Assembly (NCBI GenBank): GCA_964362215.1
Contig: CAYIDJ010000001.1
Location: 13,151 to 77,150 of the forward strand
Length of the DNA: 64,000 nt
Reading direction: 5' to 3'
Origin: an uncultured Candidatus Saccharibacteria bacterium
Lineage (GTDB): Bacteria > Patescibacteriota > Minisyncoccia > UBA6257 > XYB1-36-10
Shown: in pieces, positions 12,489 through 36,071 of the stretch
How the letters are laid out: each line of letters starts with the position of its first letter
How positions within the stretch are numbered: position 1 is the stretch's first letter
Translations under genes and position numbers: made by a program
Notes under the pieces: generated by a model
Told to the model about the DNA's origin: nothing
The model's database searches: none
The model's input: only the letters and a program-made list of their open reading frames with translations

Positions 12489-14021
12489 ATGTCGCGTACA
12501 GTCGTCTTGGTCGTGCTGGACGGCTGGGGTGTCGGCGATCACAATCGCGGCAATCCCATCTACTCCCAGCGCCCGCAAAGTATTGAATACTGCCGCCGTC
12601 ACTTTCCTGCCGGCGCCCTTCAGGCCTCCGGCATCGCCGTCGGCCTTCCTTGGGAAGAAGCCGGTAGCAGTGAAATCAGCCACTTGGTTATCGGCGCCGG
12701 CCGCACTGTTTACCAGCCGTATCCCCGCATCTCTCTCGCCGTCCGCGACGGCAGTTTTTTCTCTAATCCTACTCTTTTGGCCGCCGCCGACCACGCCACC
12801 GCTTCCGGCGGCTCTCTCCATCTCGTCGGCCTCCTTTCTGAATCCAATTCGGACGCTTCCCGCGAACACTTGGATGCCTTAATCAAGTTTACCTCTGACC
12901 GCTCCCTCCCCTACTGGCTCCACCTTATAACCGATGGCGTGGACAGCTCGCGTTCCGCCACCGACCTTATCAGCACTCTGCCCGACCCCAGCCGCGTTAT
13001 CAGCCTTTTCGGACGCTATTACGCCATGGACGAAGACGACCATTGGGACCGTATCGGTTCCTGTTATCGTGCTCTAACCGACCCCGCCGTCCCTTCCCTG
13101 GAAATCTCCACTCTCTTCACCGCCTCCCGCGCCTCCGGCGGCGACCAGTATATCGCCCCCTCTCCGGTTAACGCCCATCATCCGGTTAAAGACGGCGACG
13201 CTCTTATTTTTTTCAACTTTCGCGAGGACGGCTTACGCGAACTCGTCTCGCCCTTCGCCGACCCTCAATTCTCCGAATTCAAAACTGTCTCTTTCTCCAA
13301 CCTCTTTGTCGCCACTTTCTCCCGTTACAGCCGCGATTTTAAAGCCACCGTTGCTTTTGAAACCGACCTCCCTCAAACTCCGCTCGGGCGCGTCCTCTCC
13401 GCCGCCGGCAAAACCCAGCTCAAAATCGGTGAAACTATAAAATATTCTTCCCTCACTTACTTCTTTAACGGCTTCCGTGAAGCTCCTTATAAAAACGAAT
13501 ATCGGGTGCTTATTCCCTCCACCAGCACCCCCCACCCCGAATCCTCTCCCGCCCTCCGCGCCGCCGACATTACTGCTCGCGCCCTTCAGTCCATCAACGA
13601 ACGCGCCTTTGATTTTATCGTCGTCAACTACGCCAACCCTGACATTATCGGCCGCACCGGCAACCTGACTGCCGCCGAAGACGCCGTCCGCGTGCTCGAC
13701 GGCGAACTTAACAAAATCATCCGCGCCTCTCTTGAATCCGGCGCCACTCTCATTATTATGGGTAGTCACGGCAATATGGAACGCATGGTAAATCCCCTGA
13801 CCGGTGAATCGGAAACTGGAAACACCGCCAATCCCGTTCCCATCTACCTTCTCGGCCGCGAATTCCAAACTGTTAAAAATGACATTCGTCTGTCCGCGGA
13901 AGAACAAACTACCTCCGGTATCATCTCTGATGTCTCGCCTATGATTCTCAAACTTTTTGACATCTCTCTCCCCTCCGACATGACCGACTCCAATCTGCTA
14001 AAATTATTACAAAATCCATAA
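12489..14021 (+). CDS. gpmI: 2,3-bisphosphoglycerate-independent phosphoglycerate mutase (iPGM)
   Basis: VVLVVLDGWGVGDHNRGNPI N-terminus, ~510 aa, alkaline-phosphatase-like core (MGSHGNMERM). Confidence 0.75.
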   Translation: MSRTVVLVVLDGWGVGDHNRGNPIYSQRPQSIEYCRRHFPAGALQASGIAVGLPWEEAGSSEISHLVIGAGRTVYQPYPRISLAVRDGSFFSNPTLLAAADHATASGGSLHLVGLLSESNSDASREHLDALIKFTSDRSLPYWLHLITDGVDSSRSATDLISTLPDPSRVISLFGRYYAMDEDDHWDRIGSCYRALTDPAVPSLEISTLFTASRASGGDQYIAPSPVNAHHPVKDGDALIFFNFREDGLRELVSPFADPQFSEFKTVSFSNLFVATFSRYSRDFKATVAFETDLPQTPLGRVLSAAGKTQLKIGETIKYSSLTYFFNGFREAPYKNEYRVLIPSTSTPHPESSPALRAADITARALQSINERAFDFIVVNYANPDIIGRTGNLTAAEDAVRVLDGELNKIIRASLESGATLIIMGSHGNMERMVNPLTGESETGNTANPVPIYLLGREFQTVKNDIRLSAEEQTTSGIISDVSPMILKLFDISLPSDMTDSNLLKLLQNP

Positions 14022-25570: not shown

Positions 25571-28500
25571 GTGGCCCCTAAATCAAAAAAAAGACTGTCG
25601 GTAAAACTACCGCCACCTGCGCCCGTCCCTCCAACAAACATCATTAACCTGCGTCCAGTTCCCCCGTCCTCTTCTAACCTTAATGCGCTGTCTTCTCCGC
25701 CTAAATGGCAAAGACGCCTGCTGGCCCAACAAGACGCCACCTCTTTCTTCTCTAAATCAAAAGAGGATAATCGTATCAATCACCTCCTTCCTTGGGCGGC
25801 CAAACTTCTCGTGCCCGACTTTATTATCGGCCACCCCAATCTGGGCGATAATCTTAAAGCCCTCTATCGGGCGCCGTTTTTTAAACCCCTCCGTCTGGCT
25901 ATAATCGGCTGGCTCATCTTCGTTCTCGCCTTCGGTTACACCGCCGTCAATTCTTTAAGGTACGGCCTTGAGGCCTTCGCCTCCACCTTCGCCGACGACA
26001 CCCAAGCCGAGTTTGACGCCGGCACTCACAGCGCCACCCAGTGGGACTCCGGCAACAGCTGGTTGGAGTTAACCACTGCCGGCCAAACCGCCGGCTCCGG
26101 CGATTTTACCTCTTCCATCAAGGATTCCGCCGTCACCGCCACCTGGAACTCCTTAGCTTGGGTTCCCAACCGCCCCACCGGCAAAGAACTGCCTAATAAC
26201 GCCAACTCTGAAACCGACTACACCACCGGCAATGCCAACATGACCGGAAATTTTGGCTTATGGCACTTAAACGAATCTTCTGGCACTCTCGCTGACAGCT
26301 CCGGCGGCGGACATACCGGCTCTTATAGCGGCTCCGGCTACTCCCAAACTGGTGCCCTTAATACTGCTTTAGGCGGCTTTAGTGGTTTTCCTCTTAATGT
26401 CGGTGATATTAATGATACTGACAACTCCGCCTATATGACTATTGAAATGTGGATCTACCCCATCACTCTTGGCACTATCAGAATATTGTCTATTAAATCT
26501 GGTTCCAGCCAAAATCAATATACAATTAGGACACAAAACACCGCCGGCGTTCAAGATGAACTCTATTTCTTTATTGCCTCTTCCCTTACCGACAGCTCTA
26601 CCTATTTCGGTACCTCTAACTTAAACTTAACCGCGGGCGCCTGGCAGCATTTAGCTTTTGTTTATGACGGTACTCTCGCCGCCGCTAACCGCGTTGCTAT
26701 CTATAGAAATGGCGTTGCCGCCTCCGGTTCCGTTAGTGGCACTATTCCCACCACCTTAACTTCCTCTACTGTATCCGCTTATTTTGGCAGTGGTGCCACC
26801 GGTGGTAATGCATCTGACTCAAATCTGGACGAAATCGCTATATATAGCCGCGCTCTCTCCGCCACCGAAGTCGCCGACCACTACAAACGCGGCGCCCTCA
26901 ACTTAAAATACCAAGTCCGCAGCTGTAATGATTCCGCCTGCTCCGGCGAAAGCTTCATCGGTCCCGACGGCACCGGCTCCGATTATTACTACTGGAAAAC
27001 AACCAACGCCACCACCACCCCCTCCTTCTCTCTCACTAACGTCTCCACTAACCGCTACTTCCAGTACAAAACCTATTTCACCACCAGCGACACTTCCTAC
27101 TCTCCGGAAGTAAAAAGTGTTACTGCTGACTACTCCAACCAAGCCCCCGCCACCCCTTCCAACTCTTCACCCTCTAACGGTGCCGCGCGCCAAGACCTTA
27201 ATGCCACCTTAACCGGCTCCGCCTACTCCGATAGCGAGAGTGACACTCAAGCCAACGCCGACTGGCAGGTGGACGACGACGCGGACTTTGCCACTCCCGT
27301 CTGGACCCGCACCGCCGGCGCCGGCGAAATCACCACCACTATCAACTCCACTAACGGCACCTTCGCCAACGAACTCTCTGGTAAAACTGAACTTGACCAC
27401 AACACTGTCTACTACTGGAAAGTCCGCTACGCCGACGGCGGCCAGTGGTCTAGCTACTCCACCGCCACCTCTTTCACCACCAACTCTATCGTCACTCCCA
27501 TTAACTCATCTCCCACCAGCACCTCTACCGTCGCTACCCTCACTCCCCTCCTTATCGTCTCCGACTTCTCCGACCCTCAAAGCGGCCACACCGGCGCCTA
27601 CGCCCAGTGGCAAATTGATAATAATATTGATTTTTCTTCTACTGCCTACGATTCGGGTACTGCCACTTACAGCGCTTCCCGCTCCATCCCTATCAACGCC
27701 CTCAATAATTCCACCCTTTATTACTGGCGTGTCCGCCACCAGGATTCATCCAGTCAGTGGTCCAGCTGGTCTACAACTACTTCTTTCTCTGTCCAAATTC
27801 CGGAATCATCCGTTACGGTTATACCAATTTTCGGCAACACCACCGTTGACCAGGGCGACACTGTTAAAATTGATATACAAGTGATTAACCTAACCACCGG
27901 CGACCCCATCAACGACGCCACCGCCACCATCTCCATCTTCAGTCCTGCCAGCGCCAAACTAGTAGACACAGCCGATATGTCGTACCTTTCCAGCTCCAAC
28001 GGCATCTACCGCTACTCCTATACCGTCCCTTCCACCAGCGGCAGCTATATCTACGAAGCCGCCTCCGGCTCCGGCAGTAAAGTCGGCTACACCGCCGCTA
28101 ACTTTGAAGTTCGCACCATTGCCGCCGACCTAACCTCTACCAAATCCACCGTCACCTCCGAAGCCACCGCTCAAGGTACCGAGCGCACCGCCCAATCCTC
28201 CGAACGCACTTCCCAAGCAACCGAACGAACATCCCAAGCCGCCGAAAGAACATCGCAGGCCACCTCTCGCACCGCCGTTACCGATATTCAAACTGACGTC
28301 AACGCTATCCAGTCTAATGTTGATATTTTGATTGGCGCCCTAATTGTCACCCAAAGCACCGTCAGCGATGCCTCTCCTTCCACTACCTCTTTTGACACCG
28401 CTCTCACTAACGCCACCAATGATTTTTATAACAACGCCGTCTTAACTTTCACTTCCGGCAATTTAGACGGTCAAAGCCGCCGCGTCTCCGACTACAACGG

Positions 28501-30862
28501 CACAACTAATGTCATAACCTTAGACCCCGCTTTAACCTCCGCCCCCGCTAATAGTGATGCTTTTACTATTGTCGCCCAAAATGTGCGCGTGGAAGAACAA
28601 CTAGCCTCCCACGAAACCTCCCAGTCCAGTTTCCGCACTTCCGTCACCTCCAGCTTAACCAGTATTGAAGGAAAAATTGACACTTTAACCACCACCCTAA
28701 ACACCGTGGACACCAACTTAAGCAGCGTCCAGTCTACCGTCAACTCACTCCGCACCTCCCAGCAAAAACTTTATCAGGTTAATCTTTCTGACGTTTCTGA
28801 AATCCAGGCCGGTAACACCTACCGCGCTAAAGTTATCGTCTTAGACTACCAATCTAACCCCGCTACTCCCTCCACCGCCCCCACCATCCTCATCCGCGAC
28901 GCCAGCCGCGTTCTGGCCCTGGCTACTACCACTATGACCGAACTCTCCACCGGCGTTTATGAATACACTTCCGCCGTTTCCTCCTCCGCCACCACCGGCC
29001 TCTGGGAGACCATCATTAATGTTGGCATCGGCGGCTCCGCCGATATCGTTCGCAATGACTACTGGCAGGTCACCGGCGCCCCGGCGCAGGTCCTCGTCAA
29101 CTCCATCAGCGACTCTTCTATTCCCTCTATTTCCGCTAACGTTACCATCACCAACGAGGGTGGTGGCGCTTACGAATATCAGTATGAATGGTGTGTCGTC
29201 TCCTCTCAAGACAACCAGTGCGGCGGCAATGATGACGTTTATTATGCCTCCGCCGCCAAACTAATTTCCGCCGGCGCCGACTTCAACCCCACCTTAACCG
29301 CCACCGTCTCTTCTGACGGCTCCTACTGGTTTAAGGTTGTCGTCTACTATGGCACCGCCGCCTCCGGCGCCTCCCGCTCCTTCACCACTTCCGCCGAAGA
29401 AAGTGCCTCTCTCCCCGCCAGTAGCGGCGCCGCCGGTATTGACGCCCCGCCCGCCGCCACCAACGCCAATATCTATCTCGCCATCAATAACGTCAAAAAC
29501 GACCTGGCGGCCAACTCCAAAAAACTGGAGCGCGCCCTGGAAGTTCTGGGCGCCATCAGTCCCTCTCTCCAAACCGTTCTTTCCGTCAACGCCGACAAAA
29601 TTGACAATCTCACCGACATCCAAAACAAAATCTCCGACTTGCGCGCCATCTCCTCCGCCACCCGCCGCCTAATTGAGCAATCTGTCGCCGAGCCGTTAGT
29701 GGAAACCTGGATGACCTTCAACTCCGTCCAGTTTAACTTCCTCATCAGCAACCCCCTTTCTGAAAACAAAACTCTGAAATTCAAATCCTATCTCCCCTCC
29801 GAAGTGAGGCCCGAACACATCATTGACCTAAGCGGACTTACTCTTGATTACGACCCCGCCGCCGGTAGCTACTTCGTCCATAGCGATATCACCCTCAGCG
29901 GCAACGAAACCATCACCAAAAAAGTGGAAATTAAAGACATCTGGACTTTCACCGACGAAGAAATTAAATCCCTCCGCGACCAGGCCGGTACTCTCTCCGC
30001 CCCTCTCTCCGGCACCCAGTACGATGCTCAAGGCGCCGTTCTCAAAAACGAAATTGAAGCTGTTTTAAATACGGTTCTTATCGGCCAGAAAGAAAACTAC
30101 CGCTCCCCCCAGGATCATATCGTTGCCTACCGTTCCAATAAAGAAAAAATTGATCTGGTTAAAAAGGACTTGGAAAAACTCAAGGATTTGGCCGTTTCCT
30201 CCGGCGCCTCCCGCGGTATTGTCGGCAGTGTCGGCGGCATCCAGACCTTTGCCACTTGGGGAATAATTCTGACCATGATTTCCGGTTTCGGAATTTTAGC
30301 AGCCGTTATCTTTTCTATGTGGCGCCATCAAACTATGCTGGCCGCCCTCGCTTTAGGCATTTCCAAAAAAGACATAGCGGTTGAATTCGGCCGCCGCCGA
30401 CAGCAACCGAAACCCACTTCTAAAATCATTCCCCGCGACCAATCCGACCCCTCCCCGCCCGACCCACCATCAGAACACCGCCTTATCGTCTCCGTTGTTG
30501 TTATTATCCTGGCCTTCCTCGCCTTCAAATTCCTGATTCCTCTACTCTCTTCCCGCTCCACTGAAATTAAAAGCGAAGATATCTCCGCTCTCCCCGCCGA
30601 CTCTTCCTCTCTTGCCTCCTCTATCTCTCCCGACACGGCTACTAACCTTCCGCCCTCTACCTATCTTCAAATCACCACTACCCCCACCGGCTGGCTCAAC
30701 GTTCGCAGTAACTCATCGCTTACCGGAGAAGTTCTAACCAAGGTCAACCCGGGAGAAAAATACGAATATATCTCCGTTCAAGACGATTGGTATGAAATTA
30801 TCTTAACTGACGGCCGTCATGGCTGGATTTCCAGCCAGTATGCCGCCAAAGTTTCCGAATAA
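25571..30862 (+). CDS. Giant cell-surface protein (1763 aa): N-terminal transmembrane anchor, LamG/concanavalin-like domain, two FN3-like domains, Ser/Thr-rich repeats and coiled-coil, two C-terminal transmembrane helices, C-terminal SH3b domain
   Basis: LamG_3 signature LDEIAIYSRALSATEVADHYKRG. Paired YYWKVRYADGGQWSSYSTATSFTT / YYWRVRHQDSSSQWSSWSTTTSFSV. Tandem ERTSQAT octapeptides. C-terminal SH3b-like segment GWLNVRSNSSLTGEVLTKVNPGEKYEYISVQDDWYEIILTDGRHGWISSQY. Confidence 0.75.
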   Translation: MAPKSKKRLSVKLPPPAPVPPTNIINLRPVPPSSSNLNALSSPPKWQRRLLAQQDATSFFSKSKEDNRINHLLPWAAKLLVPDFIIGHPNLGDNLKALYRAPFFKPLRLAIIGWLIFVLAFGYTAVNSLRYGLEAFASTFADDTQAEFDAGTHSATQWDSGNSWLELTTAGQTAGSGDFTSSIKDSAVTATWNSLAWVPNRPTGKELPNNANSETDYTTGNANMTGNFGLWHLNESSGTLADSSGGGHTGSYSGSGYSQTGALNTALGGFSGFPLNVGDINDTDNSAYMTIEMWIYPITLGTIRILSIKSGSSQNQYTIRTQNTAGVQDELYFFIASSLTDSSTYFGTSNLNLTAGAWQHLAFVYDGTLAAANRVAIYRNGVAASGSVSGTIPTTLTSSTVSAYFGSGATGGNASDSNLDEIAIYSRALSATEVADHYKRGALNLKYQVRSCNDSACSGESFIGPDGTGSDYYYWKTTNATTTPSFSLTNVSTNRYFQYKTYFTTSDTSYSPEVKSVTADYSNQAPATPSNSSPSNGAARQDLNATLTGSAYSDSESDTQANADWQVDDDADFATPVWTRTAGAGEITTTINSTNGTFANELSGKTELDHNTVYYWKVRYADGGQWSSYSTATSFTTNSIVTPINSSPTSTSTVATLTPLLIVSDFSDPQSGHTGAYAQWQIDNNIDFSSTAYDSGTATYSASRSIPINALNNSTLYYWRVRHQDSSSQWSSWSTTTSFSVQIPESSVTVIPIFGNTTVDQGDTVKIDIQVINLTTGDPINDATATISIFSPASAKLVDTADMSYLSSSNGIYRYSYTVPSTSGSYIYEAASGSGSKVGYTAANFEVRTIAADLTSTKSTVTSEATAQGTERTAQSSERTSQATERTSQAAERTSQATSRTAVTDIQTDVNAIQSNVDILIGALIVTQSTVSDASPSTTSFDTALTNATNDFYNNAVLTFTSGNLDGQSRRVSDYNGTTNVITLDPALTSAPANSDAFTIVAQNVRVEEQLASHETSQSSFRTSVTSSLTSIEGKIDTLTTTLNTVDTNLSSVQSTVNSLRTSQQKLYQVNLSDVSEIQAGNTYRAKVIVLDYQSNPATPSTAPTILIRDASRVLALATTTMTELSTGVYEYTSAVSSSATTGLWETIINVGIGGSADIVRNDYWQVTGAPAQVLVNSISDSSIPSISANVTITNEGGGAYEYQYEWCVVSSQDNQCGGNDDVYYASAAKLISAGADFNPTLTATVSSDGSYWFKVVVYYGTAASGASRSFTTSAEESASLPASSGAAGIDAPPAATNANIYLAINNVKNDLAANSKKLERALEVLGAISPSLQTVLSVNADKIDNLTDIQNKISDLRAISSATRRLIEQSVAEPLVETWMTFNSVQFNFLISNPLSENKTLKFKSYLPSEVRPEHIIDLSGLTLDYDPAAGSYFVHSDITLSGNETITKKVEIKDIWTFTDEEIKSLRDQAGTLSAPLSGTQYDAQGAVLKNEIEAVLNTVLIGQKENYRSPQDHIVAYRSNKEKIDLVKKDLEKLKDLAVSSGASRGIVGSVGGIQTFATWGIILTMISGFGILAAVIFSMWRHQTMLAALALGISKKDIAVEFGRRRQQPKPTSKIIPRDQSDPSPPDPPSEHRLIVSVVVIILAFLAFKFLIPLLSSRSTEIKSEDISALPADSSSLASSISPDTATNLPPSTYLQITTTPTGWLNVRSNSSLTGEVLTKVNPGEKYEYISVQDDWYEIILTDGRHGWISSQYAAKVSE

Positions 30863-31345
30863 ATGTCTCCTTCTTACGAAGAATTTTACCGCTCCTCCTC
30901 AATTTCCATCGGTATCTTTATCTTCCTTGCCGGACTTATCCTGCCCGCTCTCCTTATCCCCCTCGTCAATCTTACCGCCTGCCCCGTCGCCGACCCGCTC
31001 TGCTTCGGGAGTTATTCGGAAGTTATTGAAGAACTCGCTAAAGCGGCTGTGGTGCTCCTGCTGATTCTCAAACTGCCAACCGCTACCACCCGCCTCCTCG
31101 CTGGTTTGGCTTTCGGCTTCCTGTTCGGCGTCTCCGAAAGCTTTTTTTATTTAAATAATCTTTTTCAGCTTGGTAATCTCGGCTTATTCTGGCAACGGCT
31201 TCTCTGGACTGTCCCTATGCATATGATCACCGCCGCCGTCATCGTCCTCTCCGCTCTAATAAATAAAAAACTTATTATTCTCGGCTTTATCGCCGCCCTC
31301 ACTCTTCATCTGCTCTTCAATAATCTCATCACTAAGTTCTTCTAA
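30863..31345 (+). CDS. PrsW/CPBP (CAAX-protease-like) family intramembrane metalloprotease, translationally coupled to the giant protein gene
   Basis: Motifs EELAK (EExxK), FGFLFGVSESFFY, HMITAAV and HLLFNN (HxxxN) across five or six transmembrane helices. ATG sits 0 nt after the upstream stop. Confidence 0.55.
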   Translation: MSPSYEEFYRSSSISIGIFIFLAGLILPALLIPLVNLTACPVADPLCFGSYSEVIEELAKAAVVLLLILKLPTATTRLLAGLAFGFLFGVSESFFYLNNLFQLGNLGLFWQRLLWTVPMHMITAAVIVLSALINKKLIILGFIAALTLHLLFNNLITKFF

Positions 31346-31363
31346 GTCAGCGCTTCATAACTA

Positions 31364-31392
31364 AAACCCCCGAGTACTCGGGGGTTTTAGTT
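31364..31392 (+). terminator. Rho-independent terminator (aaaacccccgagtactcgggggtttt)
   Basis: 9-bp GC stem with flanking A and T runs. Bidirectional, and also sits 3' of the tmRNA. Confidence 0.8.
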
Positions 31393-31393
31393 A

Positions 31394-31777
31394 TGTGGAG
31401 ATGATGGGAATTGAACCCACGTCCGATCTGGAAATTCAGTAACTTCTACAGGCGTATACTGGCTATTTTTTGCGTCGGCAAGTTTAAGCCAGTCGTAATG
31501 CTTGCCGCCGCCATCCCTGTGCCTTTTCCTCTTTGCTTCCGGTCTGCCGAAGCGAGAGTAAGTCCGCTTTTATAACACCGCTCTCCGTCCCCGCGAACAT
31601 AGAGACAGAACGATGGTCCCGAATATATATCGGAACGGTCAGTTCAGCTTAAGCGTAAGCTAAAGCCGGCTGCCTGTTGAATACATTGGCATGTATTATT
31701 TTTGACGCGTTTACGGCCGCCGTCCCACCGGCCTGCTATTACTGATTTTCTTCAACCGTCGATGCCTTGCATCCCCT
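31394..31777 (-). ncRNA. ssrA: tmRNA (SsrA)
   Basis: 5' GGGGATGCAAGGCATCGACGG.... 3' tRNA-Ala-like end GTGGGTTCAATTCCCATCATCTCCA with a G3:U70 pair and A73. The internal frame GCC AAT GTA TTC AAC AGG CAG CCG GCT TTA GCT TAC GCT TAA gives tag ANVFNRQPALAYA. smpB is adjacent. Confidence 0.8.
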
Positions 31778-32083: not shown

Positions 32084-32524
32084 TTACATTTTCAATATTC
32101 TATCAATCTTCCTGACTGCCTCCTTCTTCTTTATCTTCTCCCTCTTATCATACTTCTTTTTCTTTCTTCCCACTCCTAAGAGCACCTTTACTCTTCTTCC
32201 CTTATTATACACTTTCAAAGCCACTATTGTCAAGCCGCGTTCCTCCGATTTTCCTCTCAATCTTTCTATCTCCTGCCGGTGCAGCAGCAGCCGCCGCGTC
32301 CGGCTGGAATCAAAACCATCTGGTTCATTCCCCGGCTGGTACGGCGCGATTTCCGTTCCCACCAAATACGCCTCTACCCCGCGCACAATCGCCTGCGCTC
32401 CCGTTATCTGCATCTTCCCCGCCCGCGCCGCCTTCACCTCAAATCCGGTCAGCTCTATCCCCGCCTCTATTTCCTCTATTATTTCATAATCAAACCTTAC
32501 CCTTTTGTTCTCCGCTAATGCCAT
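32084..32524 (-). CDS. smpB: SsrA-binding protein SmpB
   Basis: MALAENKRVRFDYEIIEEIEAGIELTGFEVKAARAGKMQITGAQAIVRG... Start trimmed to Met at 32524. The longer ORF extends into non-homologous sequence. Confidence 0.85.
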   Translation of the reverse strand: MALAENKRVRFDYEIIEEIEAGIELTGFEVKAARAGKMQITGAQAIVRGVEAYLVGTEIAPYQPGNEPDGFDSSRTRRLLLHRQEIERLRGKSEERGLTIVALKVYNKGRRVKVLLGVGRKKKKYDKREKIKKKEAVRKIDRILKM

Positions 32525-32591
32525 AAACTTTAGTATAGGCCGAAAAGCGCGACTTAACAAAGCCCCTTTTTTGCCGTAAAATGAAGCCATT

Positions 32592-35500
32592 ATGGCTACC
32601 ACCGACAACCGCCCTCTTCCTGAACGAGAAAAAGAAATCCTCGCCTTCTGGGAGGATAAAAAAATTTTTACCAAATCCCTCCAACAAACTGCCAAGGGTA
32701 AACCTTTTGTTTTTTATGAAGGCCCCCCTTCCGCCAACGGCCGCCCCGGCCTCCACCACGTTCTTGCTCGCGCTTTCAAAGACATCATCTGCCGCTATCA
32801 GACCATGTGCGGCCGCTATGTCGCCCGCCGCGCCGGCTGGGACACCCACGGCCTCCCCGTGGAAGTCCAGGTGGAAAAAGAGTTGGGACTGAAAAGTAAG
32901 CGCGATATTGAAAATATCGTCCCCGGCGACCGCCGCGCCAGCATCATCACCTTCAACCAGAAATGCCAAGAATCCGTCTGGCGCTACCGCGACCTCTGGG
33001 AAAAGTTAACTTCTCGTATGGGCTATTGGTTAGATATGGAAAATCCTTATGTTACTTATGAACCGGAATATATCGAATCTCTCTGGTGGATTATATCCCA
33101 AGTTAACCGCCAAGGCCTTCTTTACCAAGGCCATAAAATTCTTCATTGGTGTCCCCGTTGCGGCACCGGCCTCTCCTCTCACGAAATCGCTCAGGGTTAC
33201 CAAACCGTCACCGACACCTCTGTTTTCGTAAAATTCAAACTCGCCCCTCATCAAAAAATCGGTAAAATAACCGTCCCCGCCAATACCTATATTCTATCCT
33301 GGACCACCACCCCTTGGACCCTCCCCGGCAACGTCGCTTTAGCGGTCAATAAAAATATAAAATACGTTCTCGTTAAAATTGGCTCCGAAAACTTTATCGC
33401 TTCGGCGGACTTTCTCTTCCAACTCAAAGAAAAAACAATTTCTGTATCCAATAAACAAATCAAAGGCCAGAATCTGATCGGCCTTAAATACGAGCCGCTC
33501 TTTAACATTCCCAAACTTAAATCCCCCGCCTCCCATCAAATTTATCACGCCGATTTTGTTACTACCTCCGAAGGCGCCGGCATCGTCCACACCGCCGTTA
33601 TGTATGGCGAAGACGACTACGAACTGGGCCAAAAATATAATCTTCCCGCCATCCACACCGTGGATGACGCCGGCCGCTTTCTTAAATTCGTCTCCGCCGG
33701 CCTCGCCGGCCTTGCCGTCAAAGATTCCGCCACCACCAAGAAAATCATCTCTTATCTGGAAAATAAAAACTTCCTCCTTAAAACCGCTCCCTACGAACAC
33801 GAATACCCTTTCTGCTGGCGCTGCGACACGCCCGTCATCTACTACGCCCGCTCTTCCTGGTTTATCAAGATGTCCGCCCTCAAAGACAAACTCATTAAAA
33901 ATAACTCGTCCATCAGCTGGGTTCCCTCTCATCTTAAAAATGGTCGCTTCGGTGAATGGTTAAGTAACGTCAAGGACTGGGCTGTTTCCCGCGAACGCTA
34001 CTGGGCCACTCCTTTACCCATCTGGCTCTGCTCCTCTTGTAATCACCTAGAAGTTATCGGCAGTTTGTCCGAATTAGATAAACTCACTGTCTCCTCCAAT
34101 AACCGCTTTTTCATTATGCGCCACGGTCAAGCTCTCTCTAACGTCAAAAACTTCTTGAGCTCTTACCCGGAAAAACGCCTCAACCCCCTCACTCCCGCCG
34201 GCGCTAAAGAAATGCTGTCCGCCGCCGCCCGCCTTAAATCAAAAAAGATTGATCTTATTGTTTCCTCCGACCTCCCTCGCGCCCACGCTACTGCCAAACT
34301 CATCGCCTCTGCTCTCGGCATTAAAAAAGTCGCTATTGACAAGCGCCTGCGCGAGCGCGACTTCGGCCAAGATAACGGCCTGCCGATTAAAAACGCTGAC
34401 TCCTCGCAACACGAACCGCTATCCAGTATCCGCGCCCGCGTAATAAAAGCGCTTTTTGACACCGACCGCCAGTATCAAAATAAAAACATTCTTTTTATCA
34501 GTCACGGTTCTCCTCTGCTTACTCTTCGCCTCGCCGCCGAAAACACTGACAATACTCTCCCCGTCAATGAACCTCTTTTGCCTACCGGCGGCTGGCAGGA
34601 GCTTAAACTGAAACGTCTTCCCCGAAACGACGATGGCGCCGTAGACCTTCACCGCCCTTATATTGATGAAGTTAAGCTCTCCTGCCCCTCCTGCCGCCAT
34701 TCCCTGACTCGCGTACCCGATCTCCTTGATGTTTGGTTTGACTCCGGCGCCATGCCTTTTGCCGCCCCCCGCTTCCCTTTCGCCGTCAAAAAACTTGCCG
34801 CCACCGACTATCCCGCCGACTATATCTCCGAAGCCGTTGACCAGACCCGCGGCTGGTTCTATACCCTTCTTGCCGTCTCTACTCTCTTAGGTTTCAAAGC
34901 TCCTTACCGCCACGTCATCTCCTTGGGACACCTCAACGATAAACACGGCCAGAAAATGTCCAAATCTCGCGGCAATATAGTTGACGCGGAAGAAATGATG
35001 GAACGCTACGGCGCCGATATTGTCCGCTGGCACTTTTACACCATTAACCAACCCGGCGACACCAAAAACTTTGACGAATCCGACCTCAAGAAAGTTACTA
35101 ATCGGGTTTTTAATATTCTTCAAAACTCTCTTGTCTTCTACCAAACATACCGCGCCTCGCCGAAACTTCATGCACAACCTAAGTATAGTCAAAGGACAAA
35201 AAACATTCTGGATCTCTGGCTCGCCGCCCGCCTCACTGCCACCAAACTGGAGATAACTTCTCGATTAGACAAATACGACGTTTATCACGCCGCCTTAAGT
35301 ATTGAAAAATTAATTGACGATCTTTCTCGCTGGTATATCCGCCGCTCCCGTTCCCGCTTTCAACAACCCACTTCTACCTCCGACCACGTTGCCGCCTCTG
35401 TCACTCTCCGCTCCGCCCTTATGGAAATATCCGCCCTTCTCGCTCCCTTCACGCCCTTCTTCGCTGAGTGGCTCTATAAAGAACTGGGTGGCTCTAAAGA

Positions 35501-36071
35501 ATCAATTCATCTAGAGTCGTGGCCAAAAACCTCCCCCAAAATAGACCCCGCTCTTCTTTCCCAAATGGAAACAGCTCGCCAACTCTCAAGTTTAGGACTA
35601 TCCGAACGCTCATCCTTAAATATCAAAGTCCGTCAGCCCCTCGCCGAAATGAAAGTGTCGCTAGACACCCTAAGCGCAGTCAAAGGGTCTCATCTGCCAA
35701 AAGAAATAGTCGCCCTCGTCGCCGATGAGGTTAATGTTAAAAAAATATCTCTCGGTAATCGCCTCGCCAAAGACAAAGAAGTTGAACTTGACGCCGTCAT
35801 CACTCCCGCTCTTCGCGAGGAAGGCAACTTGCGCGAACTAATCCGCGCCGTTCAGTCCCTCCGCGCCGCCGCCGGCTTAAAACCCGGAGAACCAGTTTCT
35901 CTTTTCTTCCAATCCTCCCCTGTCGCTTCCGCCTTTATCATTAAACACACCGCCGCCCTCACTAAGGCCTGCTCTCTTAAAACCGTTTCCGCCAACTCCG
36001 TCTCTTCTCCTAAATCAAGCCGTGCGCTCTCCTTAGACGACCTCGGCCCTATCTCTCTCGCGATAAAATAA
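32592..36071 (+). CDS. ileS: Isoleucyl-tRNA synthetase carrying an inserted histidine-phosphatase (PGAM-like) domain
   Basis: HIGH-region PSANGRPGLHHV, GWDTHGLPVE, CP1 editing domain, KMSKS (QKMSKSRGN). ~180 extra residues (aa ~500-682) contain RHGQ...SHGSPL histidine-phosphatase motifs between the conserved IGSLSEL and DLHRPY segments. Confidence 0.85.
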   Translation: MATTDNRPLPEREKEILAFWEDKKIFTKSLQQTAKGKPFVFYEGPPSANGRPGLHHVLARAFKDIICRYQTMCGRYVARRAGWDTHGLPVEVQVEKELGLKSKRDIENIVPGDRRASIITFNQKCQESVWRYRDLWEKLTSRMGYWLDMENPYVTYEPEYIESLWWIISQVNRQGLLYQGHKILHWCPRCGTGLSSHEIAQGYQTVTDTSVFVKFKLAPHQKIGKITVPANTYILSWTTTPWTLPGNVALAVNKNIKYVLVKIGSENFIASADFLFQLKEKTISVSNKQIKGQNLIGLKYEPLFNIPKLKSPASHQIYHADFVTTSEGAGIVHTAVMYGEDDYELGQKYNLPAIHTVDDAGRFLKFVSAGLAGLAVKDSATTKKIISYLENKNFLLKTAPYEHEYPFCWRCDTPVIYYARSSWFIKMSALKDKLIKNNSSISWVPSHLKNGRFGEWLSNVKDWAVSRERYWATPLPIWLCSSCNHLEVIGSLSELDKLTVSSNNRFFIMRHGQALSNVKNFLSSYPEKRLNPLTPAGAKEMLSAAARLKSKKIDLIVSSDLPRAHATAKLIASALGIKKVAIDKRLRERDFGQDNGLPIKNADSSQHEPLSSIRARVIKALFDTDRQYQNKNILFISHGSPLLTLRLAAENTDNTLPVNEPLLPTGGWQELKLKRLPRNDDGAVDLHRPYIDEVKLSCPSCRHSLTRVPDLLDVWFDSGAMPFAAPRFPFAVKKLAATDYPADYISEAVDQTRGWFYTLLAVSTLLGFKAPYRHVISLGHLNDKHGQKMSKSRGNIVDAEEMMERYGADIVRWHFYTINQPGDTKNFDESDLKKVTNRVFNILQNSLVFYQTYRASPKLHAQPKYSQRTKNILDLWLAARLTATKLEITSRLDKYDVYHAALSIEKLIDDLSRWYIRRSRSRFQQPTSTSDHVAASVTLRSALMEISALLAPFTPFFAEWLYKELGGSKESIHLESWPKTSPKIDPALLSQMETARQLSSLGLSERSSLNIKVRQPLAEMKVSLDTLSAVKGSHLPKEIVALVADEVNVKKISLGNRLAKDKEVELDAVITPALREEGNLRELIRAVQSLRAAAGLKPGEPVSLFFQSSPVASAFIIKHTAALTKACSLKTVSANSVSSPKSSRALSLDDLGPISLAIK

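Follow-up and report, generated by a model that had tools for sequence, protein, structure and literature searches.

The present study deals with a two-gene unit in a 64,000-nucleotide (nt) stretch of contig CAYIDJ010000001.1 from an uncultured Candidatus Saccharibacteria bacterium (positions 13,151 to 77,150 of the contig; assembly GCA_964362215.1), which is referred to as the window hereafter. In this unit, the gene of a giant surface protein is followed, with no nucleotide in between, by that of a small polytopic membrane protein related to the protease PrsW, which we call mini-PrsW. The pair was found again at most loci of either partner in Patescibacteria, the catalytic-motif residues of mini-PrsW were invariant, and the conservation of the C-terminal module of the giant was highest at its membrane anchor. 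The explanation that we favor, with our confidence about evenly divided between acceptance and doubt, is that the operon encodes a Patescibacteria-specific surface fibril or adhesin together with a dedicated intramembrane protease that would cleave its C-terminal anchor. The module of the giant and mini-PrsW is widespread in Patescibacteria and apparently undescribed.

Patescibacteria, or the candidate phyla radiation (CPR), represent a large share of bacterial diversity and live mostly attached to other cells, and, to our knowledge, how they build the surface for this attachment is largely unknown. The giants are among the largest proteins of the tiny Patescibacteria genomes and combine a conserved stalk with lectin-like heads that are exchangeable, and the family offers a handle in the form of a conserved membrane-anchor motif and a protease of 131-168 amino acids (aa) that is almost always encoded alongside.

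Conservation of the gene pair

The giant gene (25571..30862, plus strand), taken from the list of open reading frames (ORFs), has a GTG start and encodes 1763 aa, and the mini-PrsW gene (30863..31345, plus strand) has an ATG start and encodes 160 aa with five predicted helices. The stop codon of the former (TAA, 30860-30862) directly abuts the start codon of the latter (ATG, 30863), and both ORFs are in the same frame. The positions are those given in an earlier reading of the letters and ORFs of the window by a model (the sequence-only reading). The window contains exactly one giant and one mini-PrsW.

In all relatives retrieved with sequence context by a protein search with mini-PrsW, a large ORF on the same strand ended at the start of the mini-PrsW gene, and these ORFs were homologues of the window giant by BLASTP. 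The giant homologues upstream of mini-PrsW genes in relatives had 1100-2150 aa. A protease-first scan of one genome per GTDB species gave 13 mini-PrsW loci, all in Patescibacteria (Nealsonbacteria, Falkowbacteria, Kaiserbacteria, Paceibacterota, and Saccharibacteria), and a homologous giant was encoded directly upstream in 11 of these 13 species. A giant-first scan was also made on metagenome contigs, in which 49 loci were collected by alignment of the region around the second transmembrane (TM) segment of the giant (TM2) and the 3 kb downstream was searched with a mini-PrsW hidden Markov model (HMM). Mini-PrsW was present within 3 kb downstream at 44 of these loci, which had been found by the giant alone, on the same strand and abutting or overlapping at 37, on the same strand 1.7 kb away at one, and in convergent orientation at six. 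Among the five negatives, three had <360 nt of downstream DNA, and L066, which belongs to the convergent subgroup, had only 2.1 kb, which leaves one or two negatives with sufficient downstream sequence to be counted. The spacing from giant to mini-PrsW was -23 to +12 nt at closely linked same-strand loci with an assignable start, the separated locus L067 being an outlier, and the genes flanking the pair were otherwise unrelated between loci. Co-conservation of the two genes in relatives had been named in the sequence-only reading as a check of its proposal, and the counts from both scans bear it out.

The closest relatives of the locus in the GTDB-species scan were metagenome-assembled genomes (MAGs) of Candidatus Kaiserbacteria and Falkowbacteria, and the window giant was 75% identical to that of L020. 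The same contig (L012) was also present in metagenomes of 0.1-µm-filtered groundwater from the Hainich aquifer, where the same giant gene was called.

Several variants of the arrangement were observed. In the convergent subgroup (L061, L063, L064, and L068-L070), mini-PrsW is located 1-2 kb away on the opposite strand, and in L061 (5152-6516, minus strand) a gene for a 311-aa beta-lactamase-like/serine-hydrolase protein lies between the giant and mini-PrsW, co-oriented with the latter. In L002 (715-10492), one mini-PrsW gene is preceded by two giants in tandem, paralogues of 1551 and 1558 aa, which would represent one enzyme with two targets, and the giant of L005 (4294-10507) appears to be split into genes for a 753-aa N-terminal and a 1140-aa C-terminal part.

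Mini-PrsW as a minimal member of the PrsW family

The window mini-PrsW matched PrsW-protease (PF13367) over aa 54-156 with 27.7 bits versus a cutoff of 23.5 (E 2.3e-6). This family was matched by 14 of the 16 mini-PrsW members, with a best E of 7e-9, and no other Pfam family was matched. The protein had been assigned to the PrsW/CPBP family in the sequence-only reading, and the PrsW part of this assignment holds, whereas the CPBP part does not, as CPBP (PF02517) had no Pfam match at E<=0.01 in any of the 16 members. In NCBIfam, the window mini-PrsW, P0007, and P0010 had no match at thresholds of E<=1 to 10, neither the giant nor mini-PrsW was matched by a sorting-enzyme or CTERM model, and no model for mini-PrsW or for the TM2 signal was found.

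The mini-PrsW homologues are 131-168 aa long and 32-59% identical overall, and nine residues, E56, E57, K60, S91, E92, R112, H120, H149, and N153, were invariant in the 16 aligned members. The motifs are encoded on the plus strand at 31028-31042 (EELAK), 31133-31141 (SES), 31196-31222 (RLLWTVPMH), and 31307-31321 (HLLFN). The EExxK, FxxxH-like, and HxxxN motifs pointed out in the sequence-only reading are present, as EELAK, VPMH, and HLLFN, and invariant in the family. We take the catalytic residues of Bacillus subtilis PrsW to be E75/E76/H175. The conserved motif blocks of PrsW have been described previously (Zhang, Aravind et al, 2012; PMC3482391). The invariance of the catalytic-motif residues makes it natural to read the gene pair as a protease and its dedicated substrate.

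The AlphaFold2 model of mini-PrsW contained five helices in 160 aa, and only positions 52-174 of the 196 in the PF13367 profile were matched, with eight TM helices being present in most representatives of the PrsW family (PMC3482391). The small protein is, on its sequence and predicted helices, a minimal version of PrsW that is without the canonical size and topology. Its basic loops KLPTATTR and NKK are predicted to be cytoplasmic by the positive-inside rule, so that the motif residues would be placed in the outer-leaflet half of the membrane.

Eleven residues, two of them cysteines (ACPVADPLCFG; aa ~38-48, window 30974-31006), are inserted in the window mini-PrsW in a loop that immediately precedes the EExxK helix and is predicted to be extracytoplasmic, and this insertion was absent in 15 of the 15 other aligned homologues.

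The conserved anchor and the termini of the giant family

With aa 1030-1600 of the window giant as the query, an exhaustive search of representatives by phmmer delineated a family of 1079 clusters at 50% identity with E<=1e-3, including 350 with E<=1e-30 and proteins of up to 4253 aa. The conserved C-terminal module of the giant (29468..30370, plus strand; aa 1300-1600) consists of helices, a seven-strand beta-sandwich, a three-helix bundle, and TM2, and its conservation was highest in the motif VGGIQTFATWGII in the outer half of TM2. The juxtamembrane motif IVGSVGGIQTFATW and TM2, ending in MWRHQ (30218..30322, plus strand; aa 1550-1584), form the proposed recognition or cleavage signal. The consensus of TM2 and the juxtamembrane region was [LV]G.[VI]GGIQTFATWGIIL..VFGFGLL..IF.MWRHQ, the core of which may also be given as [LV]G.[VI]GGIQTFATWGII...MWRHQ, and a comparison of motifs in 44 representatives identified one clade of giants with the variant LFGVSTTMTWAII. 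When conservation was evaluated for 15-residue segments in 105 non-identical sequences, aa 1555-1569, in the outer half of TM2, ranked first with 3.04 bits/column and aa 1540-1554, with the juxtamembrane motif, ranked next with 2.82 bits/column. No other 30 residues of the 300-aa module are as conserved as these two segments together, which include conserved Gly residues that destabilise the helix. Neither the motif nor TM2 contained Cys in the window giant or in the consensus of the 105 sequences. A plain lipid anchor would not be as constrained as TM2 and the juxtamembrane motif are. Segments that intramembrane proteases recognise, and in many cases cleave, typically have conserved glycines within the helix. 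The same argument was made by Haft for JDVT-CTERM (bioRxiv 10.1101/2023.06.07.544157).

The part that follows TM2 occurs in two forms. In the short forms, which make up about half of the homologues, the protein ends 13-98 aa after TM2, so that the layout resembles that of a C-terminal signal, and in the long forms, including the window giant, 150-330 aa follow, comprising a basic loop, a third TM segment (TM3), a linker, and an SH3b domain. In the window giant, the basic loop (aa 1585-1637, predicted to be cytoplasmic) and TM3 (aa 1638-1659), delineated by hydropathy and charge, are encoded at 30323..30547 (plus strand), and the SH3_3 domain (PF08239), predicted to be extracytoplasmic, at 30695..30841 (plus strand; aa 1709-1757; 40.4 bits versus a cutoff of 27, E 3.5e-10). 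SH3_3 was also matched in the giant homologues from L001, L009, L016, and L026. The possibility that a separate gene supplies the TM-SH3b part at short-form loci was rejected, as the ORFs downstream in L002 and L005 had no SH3 match. An NCBIfam match to IcmG/DotF in the region of the basic loop and TM3, weak at 26.6 bits versus a cutoff of 200, was attributed to composition and not accepted.

The N-terminus is also conserved. The giants share an extension with a consensus of roughly HFLKWAIKLLVPDFLIGHPNLWDNLKTLRKHPQFKPLR, basic in character (LKWAIKLLVPDFLIGHPNLWDNLKTLRKHPQFKPLR), that precedes a hydrophobic segment. In the window giant, it is represented by HLLPWAAKLLVPDFIIGHPNLGDNLKALYRAPFFKPLR (25781..25894, plus strand; aa 71-108), a predicted cytoplasmic n-region conserved in 18 full-length homologues, and is followed at 25895..25984 (plus strand) by the first TM segment found by hydropathy (TM1, aa 109-129) and a putative signal-peptidase I site, GLEAFA|S (aa 132-138). 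The pattern P-x-x-x-[AS]-x-A was present at the aligned position after TM1 in ~15 of 19 homologues, with AFA|S at aa 136-139 in the window giant. Because this signal-peptidase I pattern sits after TM1, TM1 is probably a cleaved signal peptide with an unusually long n-region and not a permanent anchor. Thus, the N-terminal TM anchor described in the sequence-only reading is right as to the hydrophobic segment and probably wrong as to its permanence. Specialised signal peptides with an extension are known from other surface proteins, and the N-terminus of the giants is similar to them; the conserved basic extension may mark a particular export route.

Hydropathy analysis indicated TM segments at approximately aa 109-129, 1563-1584 (TM2), and 1638-1659 (TM3), and the net charge was +11 for aa 1-105 and +4 for the loop of aa 1585-1637. 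These values support a predicted topology with the N-terminus inside, ~1430 aa outside, the loop of aa 1585-1637 inside, and the SH3b domain outside, in agreement with the two C-terminal TM helices around a cytoplasmic loop that had been proposed from the sequence alone.

Proposed role of mini-PrsW and its alternatives

Taken together, the near-obligate adjacency, the retained catalytic residues, and the excess conservation of the TM and juxtamembrane signal lead us to favor an enzyme with a dedicated substrate. In the scheme that we propose, the giant would be exported by Sec, signal peptidase I would cleave it at the conserved AxA site and so take off the N-terminal hydrophobic segment, and TM2 would then be the sole anchor of the protein, the lectin head being at the end far from the cell. 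Mini-PrsW would dock on the Gly-rich TM2 within the membrane, with its active site (E56/E57, H120, and H149/N153) placed in the outer-leaflet half by the positive-inside rule, and its cut would fall on the GGIQT boundary or close to it. The predicted topology puts both this motif and the active site at the outer leaflet. The cut would separate the ectodomain of ~1400 aa from a membrane stub. This stub would consist of TM2 only in the short forms and, in the long forms, to which the window giant belongs, of TM2-loop-TM3-SH3b. The surface protein would thereby be matured, sorted, or released, in analogy to dedicated C-terminal sorting systems with one enzyme for one target. We infer this cleavage, including its position, from the patterns described above. 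The giant may mediate host attachment. PrsW/CPBP enzymes are hydrolases, and hence the ectodomain would probably be released or retained non-covalently and would not be transpeptidated.

Several points weigh against this scheme. The signal is not at the extreme C-terminus and is followed by tails of 13-98 aa or by an additional TM segment and SH3b, and it is without the invariant Cys of CPBP-type sorting signals. The one characterised reaction of PrsW, the site-1 cleavage of RsiW, represents regulated signalling and not constitutive maturation (PMC3482391). The depth of the active site and the signal-peptidase cleavage are predicted from charge and sequence patterns. As for the pairing, L075 is the sole clear exception in the giant-first scan, with 3.8 kb of downstream DNA and no mini-PrsW in it, and two of the 13 loci in the protease-first scan, in the related Paceibacterota L023 (7926-8369) and L024 (7962-8357), have a lone mini-PrsW with intact motifs, with no giant homologue within 8 kb and with upstream genes on the other strand.

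The proposal may be widened to a Patescibacteria-wide C-terminal sorting system that is apparently undescribed, in which a 'GGIQT-W' signal would mark the largest surface proteins and the five-helix PrsW would be the dedicated sorting enzyme, maturing the main host-contact fibrils or an S-layer-like coat, with the optional TM3-SH3b stub as a peptidoglycan-binding base. We put this forward tentatively, considering it somewhat more prone to fail than to hold.

A rather unlikely alternative, although the strongest of those that depart from our proposal, is that mini-PrsW performs a conditional cleavage of the site-1 type, as B. subtilis PrsW does on RsiW, when triggered by, for example, envelope stress or host contact. 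The adhesin would then be shed so that the cell detaches, or a site-2 protease would free the basic N-terminal domain into the cytoplasm. The only PrsW characterised so far works in this manner (PMC3482391), a strongly conserved cytoplasmic N-terminal segment adjoins TM1 of the giant, and all of the co-occurrence data are equally compatible with this type of cleavage. It would also agree with the idea of quality control raised in the sequence-only reading, which had suggested a dedicated processing or quality-control protease; the dedicated pair is supported by the synteny and the invariant motifs, whereas no specific support for quality control was obtained. However, the giant N-terminus had no match to an anti-sigma-like domain and no sigma-factor gene lies beside the pair, and the giant was rejected as an anti-sigma factor on these grounds. 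In addition, the conservation peaks at TM2 and not near TM1, and the AxA site at TM1, if used, would remove the N-terminal segment independently of PrsW. The tight translational coupling of the two genes also suggests stoichiometric, constitutive co-production.

Somewhat less probable again is a non-proteolytic role, in which mini-PrsW would insert, oligomerise, or anchor the giant via TM2 as a scaffold or chaperone, like APH-1 in gamma-secretase. The closest structural match of the mini-PrsW model was indeed the non-catalytic scaffold APH-1, while a Foldseek search of the model against the PDB gave no match with E<0.1 and a sequence-profile search of PDB chains with mini-PrsW gave TRPV channel noise only. 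The shortening of mini-PrsW relative to canonical PrsW described above is in favor of such a role, and a lasting helix-helix association would account for the conserved TM2 just as well. Against it, all residues of the four motifs are invariant at an overall identity of only 32-59%, which is the pattern expected for retained catalysis, and APH-1 has presumably lost the glutamates.

We give little credence to the last alternative, that mini-PrsW acts on another target (the N-terminal extension of the giant or another envelope protein) or in CPBP/Abi-like immunity with the linkage reflecting co-expression only, for which the high conservation of that extension, the proposal of CPBP relatives as immunity proteins (10.1101/2023.06.07.544157), and the two genomes with mini-PrsW and no adjacent giant may be cited, because no toxin domain was found in the giant, the n-region is predicted to be cytoplasmic and the active site to face the outer leaflet, and, unless the two are directly linked in function, near-obligate adjacency across very divergent lineages with unrelated neighbours would hardly be expected. 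A polymorphic toxin with its immunity protein was likewise rejected, as no toxin domain was matched in the giant in Pfam or NCBIfam and the downstream genes are variable.

If it is true that mini-PrsW matures or releases the giants, a PrsW-based member would be added to the prokaryotic sorting systems, and mini-PrsW would provide a minimal model enzyme for intramembrane proteolysis of the PrsW/CPBP/APH-1 type. It would also be a genetic target for studying host attachment in cultivable Saccharibacteria, with homologous pairs being available in MAGs L025-L027. The value lies in the family-wide rule and its direct testability more than in the single locus.

Domain organisation of the giant and surroundings of the locus

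Domain HMM scans, the other check proposed in the sequence-only reading, supported its LamG and SH3b assignments as well as an intramembrane protease of the PrsW type. The head of the window giant is a Laminin_G_3 domain (PF13385, a ConA-like lectin; 26417..26875, plus strand; aa 283-435) with 69.6 bits versus a cutoff of 27.6 (E 4.3e-19). The head is variable in the family, with DUF2341 or DUF7483 at that position in relatives, and the conserved stalk is composed of Ig/MG2-like sandwiches (Ig, immunoglobulin) and Ser/Thr-rich segments. Two Ig-like modules (27410..27793, plus strand) carry the signature YYW[KR]VR...QWSS[YW]S..TSF, with copies at aa 614-635 and 717-739, and Ig_Rha78A_N in Pfam matched two stretches over both copies, the best at aa 686-741 with 31.2 bits versus a cutoff of 27.4. 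These modules had been read as FN3-like with a paired signature, and their number and signature are correct, whereas fn3 (PF00041) had no match at E<=1 in the giant; by their sequence matches, they are Ig-like beta-sandwiches, and an assignment to fn3 cannot be shown.

The repeat described previously as an ERTSQAT octapeptide is a heptapeptide (TERTSQA-like; 28178..28264, plus strand), as Tandem Repeats Finder gave a period of 21 nt and 4.1 copies. It is followed by the first conserved stalk module (28658..29467, plus strand; aa 1030-1299), which corresponds to query positions 1-270 of the exhaustive phmmer search, the only part covered by many of the matches. An MG2-like beta-sandwich was indicated in this module at aa 1079-1147 with 29 bits, a score below the Pfam cutoff.

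Upstream of the giant, infC and rplT lie in the opposite orientation. Downstream, a GC-rich hairpin, AAAACCCCCGAGTACTCGGGGGTTTT, flanked by A and T runs and read directly from the sequence, is located at 31363..31388 (strand not assigned), between the mini-PrsW stop codon and a convergent transfer-messenger RNA (tmRNA) gene. The opposite-strand infC/rplT on one side and the hairpin and tmRNA gene on the other make the giant and mini-PrsW a self-contained two-gene unit. The hairpin is likely to be a bidirectional terminator that closes the operon. It was not flagged in a promoter/terminator consensus scan, in which the counts were about those expected from shuffled sequence.

The tmRNA gene (31395-31776, minus strand) encodes the tag peptide ANVFNRQPALAYA and lies, together with the SmpB gene (32084-32695, minus strand), directly downstream of the operon. 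The longest SmpB ORF, with a TTG start, overlaps the start of ileS by ~100 nt, and hence the true SmpB start is probably further in. The isoleucyl-tRNA synthetase gene (32592-36071, plus strand; 1159 aa) contains a histidine-phosphatase insert at aa 507-656 (Pfam His_Phos_1, E 1e-22) that interrupts the middle of the class I catalytic domain, and no His_Phos match was listed for the 973-aa Falkowbacteria isoleucyl-tRNA synthetase encoded beside the homologous operon in L001.

The GC skew was approximately -0.30 in all 2-kb bins of the window (1-64000), regardless of gene orientation. At third codon positions, it was -0.63 to -0.75 for plus-strand genes and, for minus-strand genes read in the direction of each gene, +0.40 to +0.68, and these opposite signs indicate that the bias of the window is strand-specific and not coding-specific. 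The skew was -0.24 in the nearest relative, L020, and near 0 to +0.16 in most other relatives.

Comparison with known systems

In logic, the closest analogue of the giant and mini-PrsW, as far as the analogy extends, is the JDVT-CTERM system, in which a dedicated CPBP-family intramembrane protease is encoded next to a single target with a C-terminal motif, a TM helix, and an Arg signal (10.1101/2023.06.07.544157), and which has a multi-client cousin in myxosortase/MYXO-CTERM (mBio 2025, PMC11980579). Both JDVT-CTERM and our pair involve a small polytopic protease of the PrsW/CPBP/APH-1 superfamily in one operon with an apparent single target, and both targets have an N-terminal signal and, toward the C-terminus, a motif, a TM segment with conserved intramembrane residues, and basic residues. 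The type of evidence, a conserved two-gene neighbourhood, is also common to JDVT-CTERM, myxosortase, and the present pair. The enzyme here differs from that of both systems in being PrsW (PF13367) and not CPBP, the motif is GGIQTFATW with no invariant Cys, the TM segment is followed by a long tail (13-98 aa) or by an extension with a second TM segment and SH3b, and the hosts are Patescibacteria and not Pseudomonadota or Myxococcota. With respect to the tripartite sorting signal as defined for such systems (10.1101/2023.06.07.544157), the giants have a motif, a TM segment, an R/K-H-Q cluster, and an N-terminal signal-like segment, and 13-98 or 150-330 aa follow the TM segment. The enzyme and target of a dedicated system are expected in consecutive genes, and here they were so found in 11 of 13 genomes and in proximity at 44 of 49 loci, with 37 of these directly abutting.

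The prototype of PF13367 is B. subtilis PrsW, the site-1 protease of RsiW. Mini-PrsW belongs to the same Pfam family above the gathering threshold and has the same four motif blocks (EExxK, ..SE.., R.....P.H, and HxxxN/D), and in both cases the substrate is a single-pass membrane protein cut extracytoplasmically, as proposed in the case of mini-PrsW. Mini-PrsW has only five helices and 131-168 aa, whereas the canonical enzyme is larger, with eight TM helices typically (PMC3482391). The partner here is a giant structural surface protein and not an anti-sigma factor, and the protease gene is physically coupled to that of the presumed substrate.

PrsW domains have also been proposed as the releasing peptidases of large polymorphic toxins (Zhang, Aravind et al, 2012; PMC3482391), and there, as proposed here, one large protein of the surface or secreted type, in some cases a filamentous one, has a PrsW peptidase of its own for its processing or release. 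In the polymorphic toxins, however, PrsW is fused in cis at the N-terminus and accompanied by toxin and immunity modules (PMC3482391), whereas the protease here has its own gene downstream of the giant, neither a toxin nor an immunity domain was detected, and the conserved element is the C-terminal TM anchor.

Archaeosortase/PGF-CTERM, rhombosortase/GlyGly-CTERM, and sortase/LPXTG resemble the present pair in combining a membrane enzyme with a surface or S-layer-type protein in which a C-terminal motif, a TM segment, and a basic tail are recognised by that enzyme (10.1101/2023.06.07.544157). Their enzyme families are unrelated to PrsW, and they are or may be re-anchoring transpeptidases, whereas a PrsW-type hydrolase would simply cleave. 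In the literature searched, no paper turned up that linked PrsW or an intramembrane protease with CPR/Patescibacteria. Dedicated pairs of an intramembrane protease and its target are already known, and it is the PrsW-based version in Patescibacteria that is apparently new.

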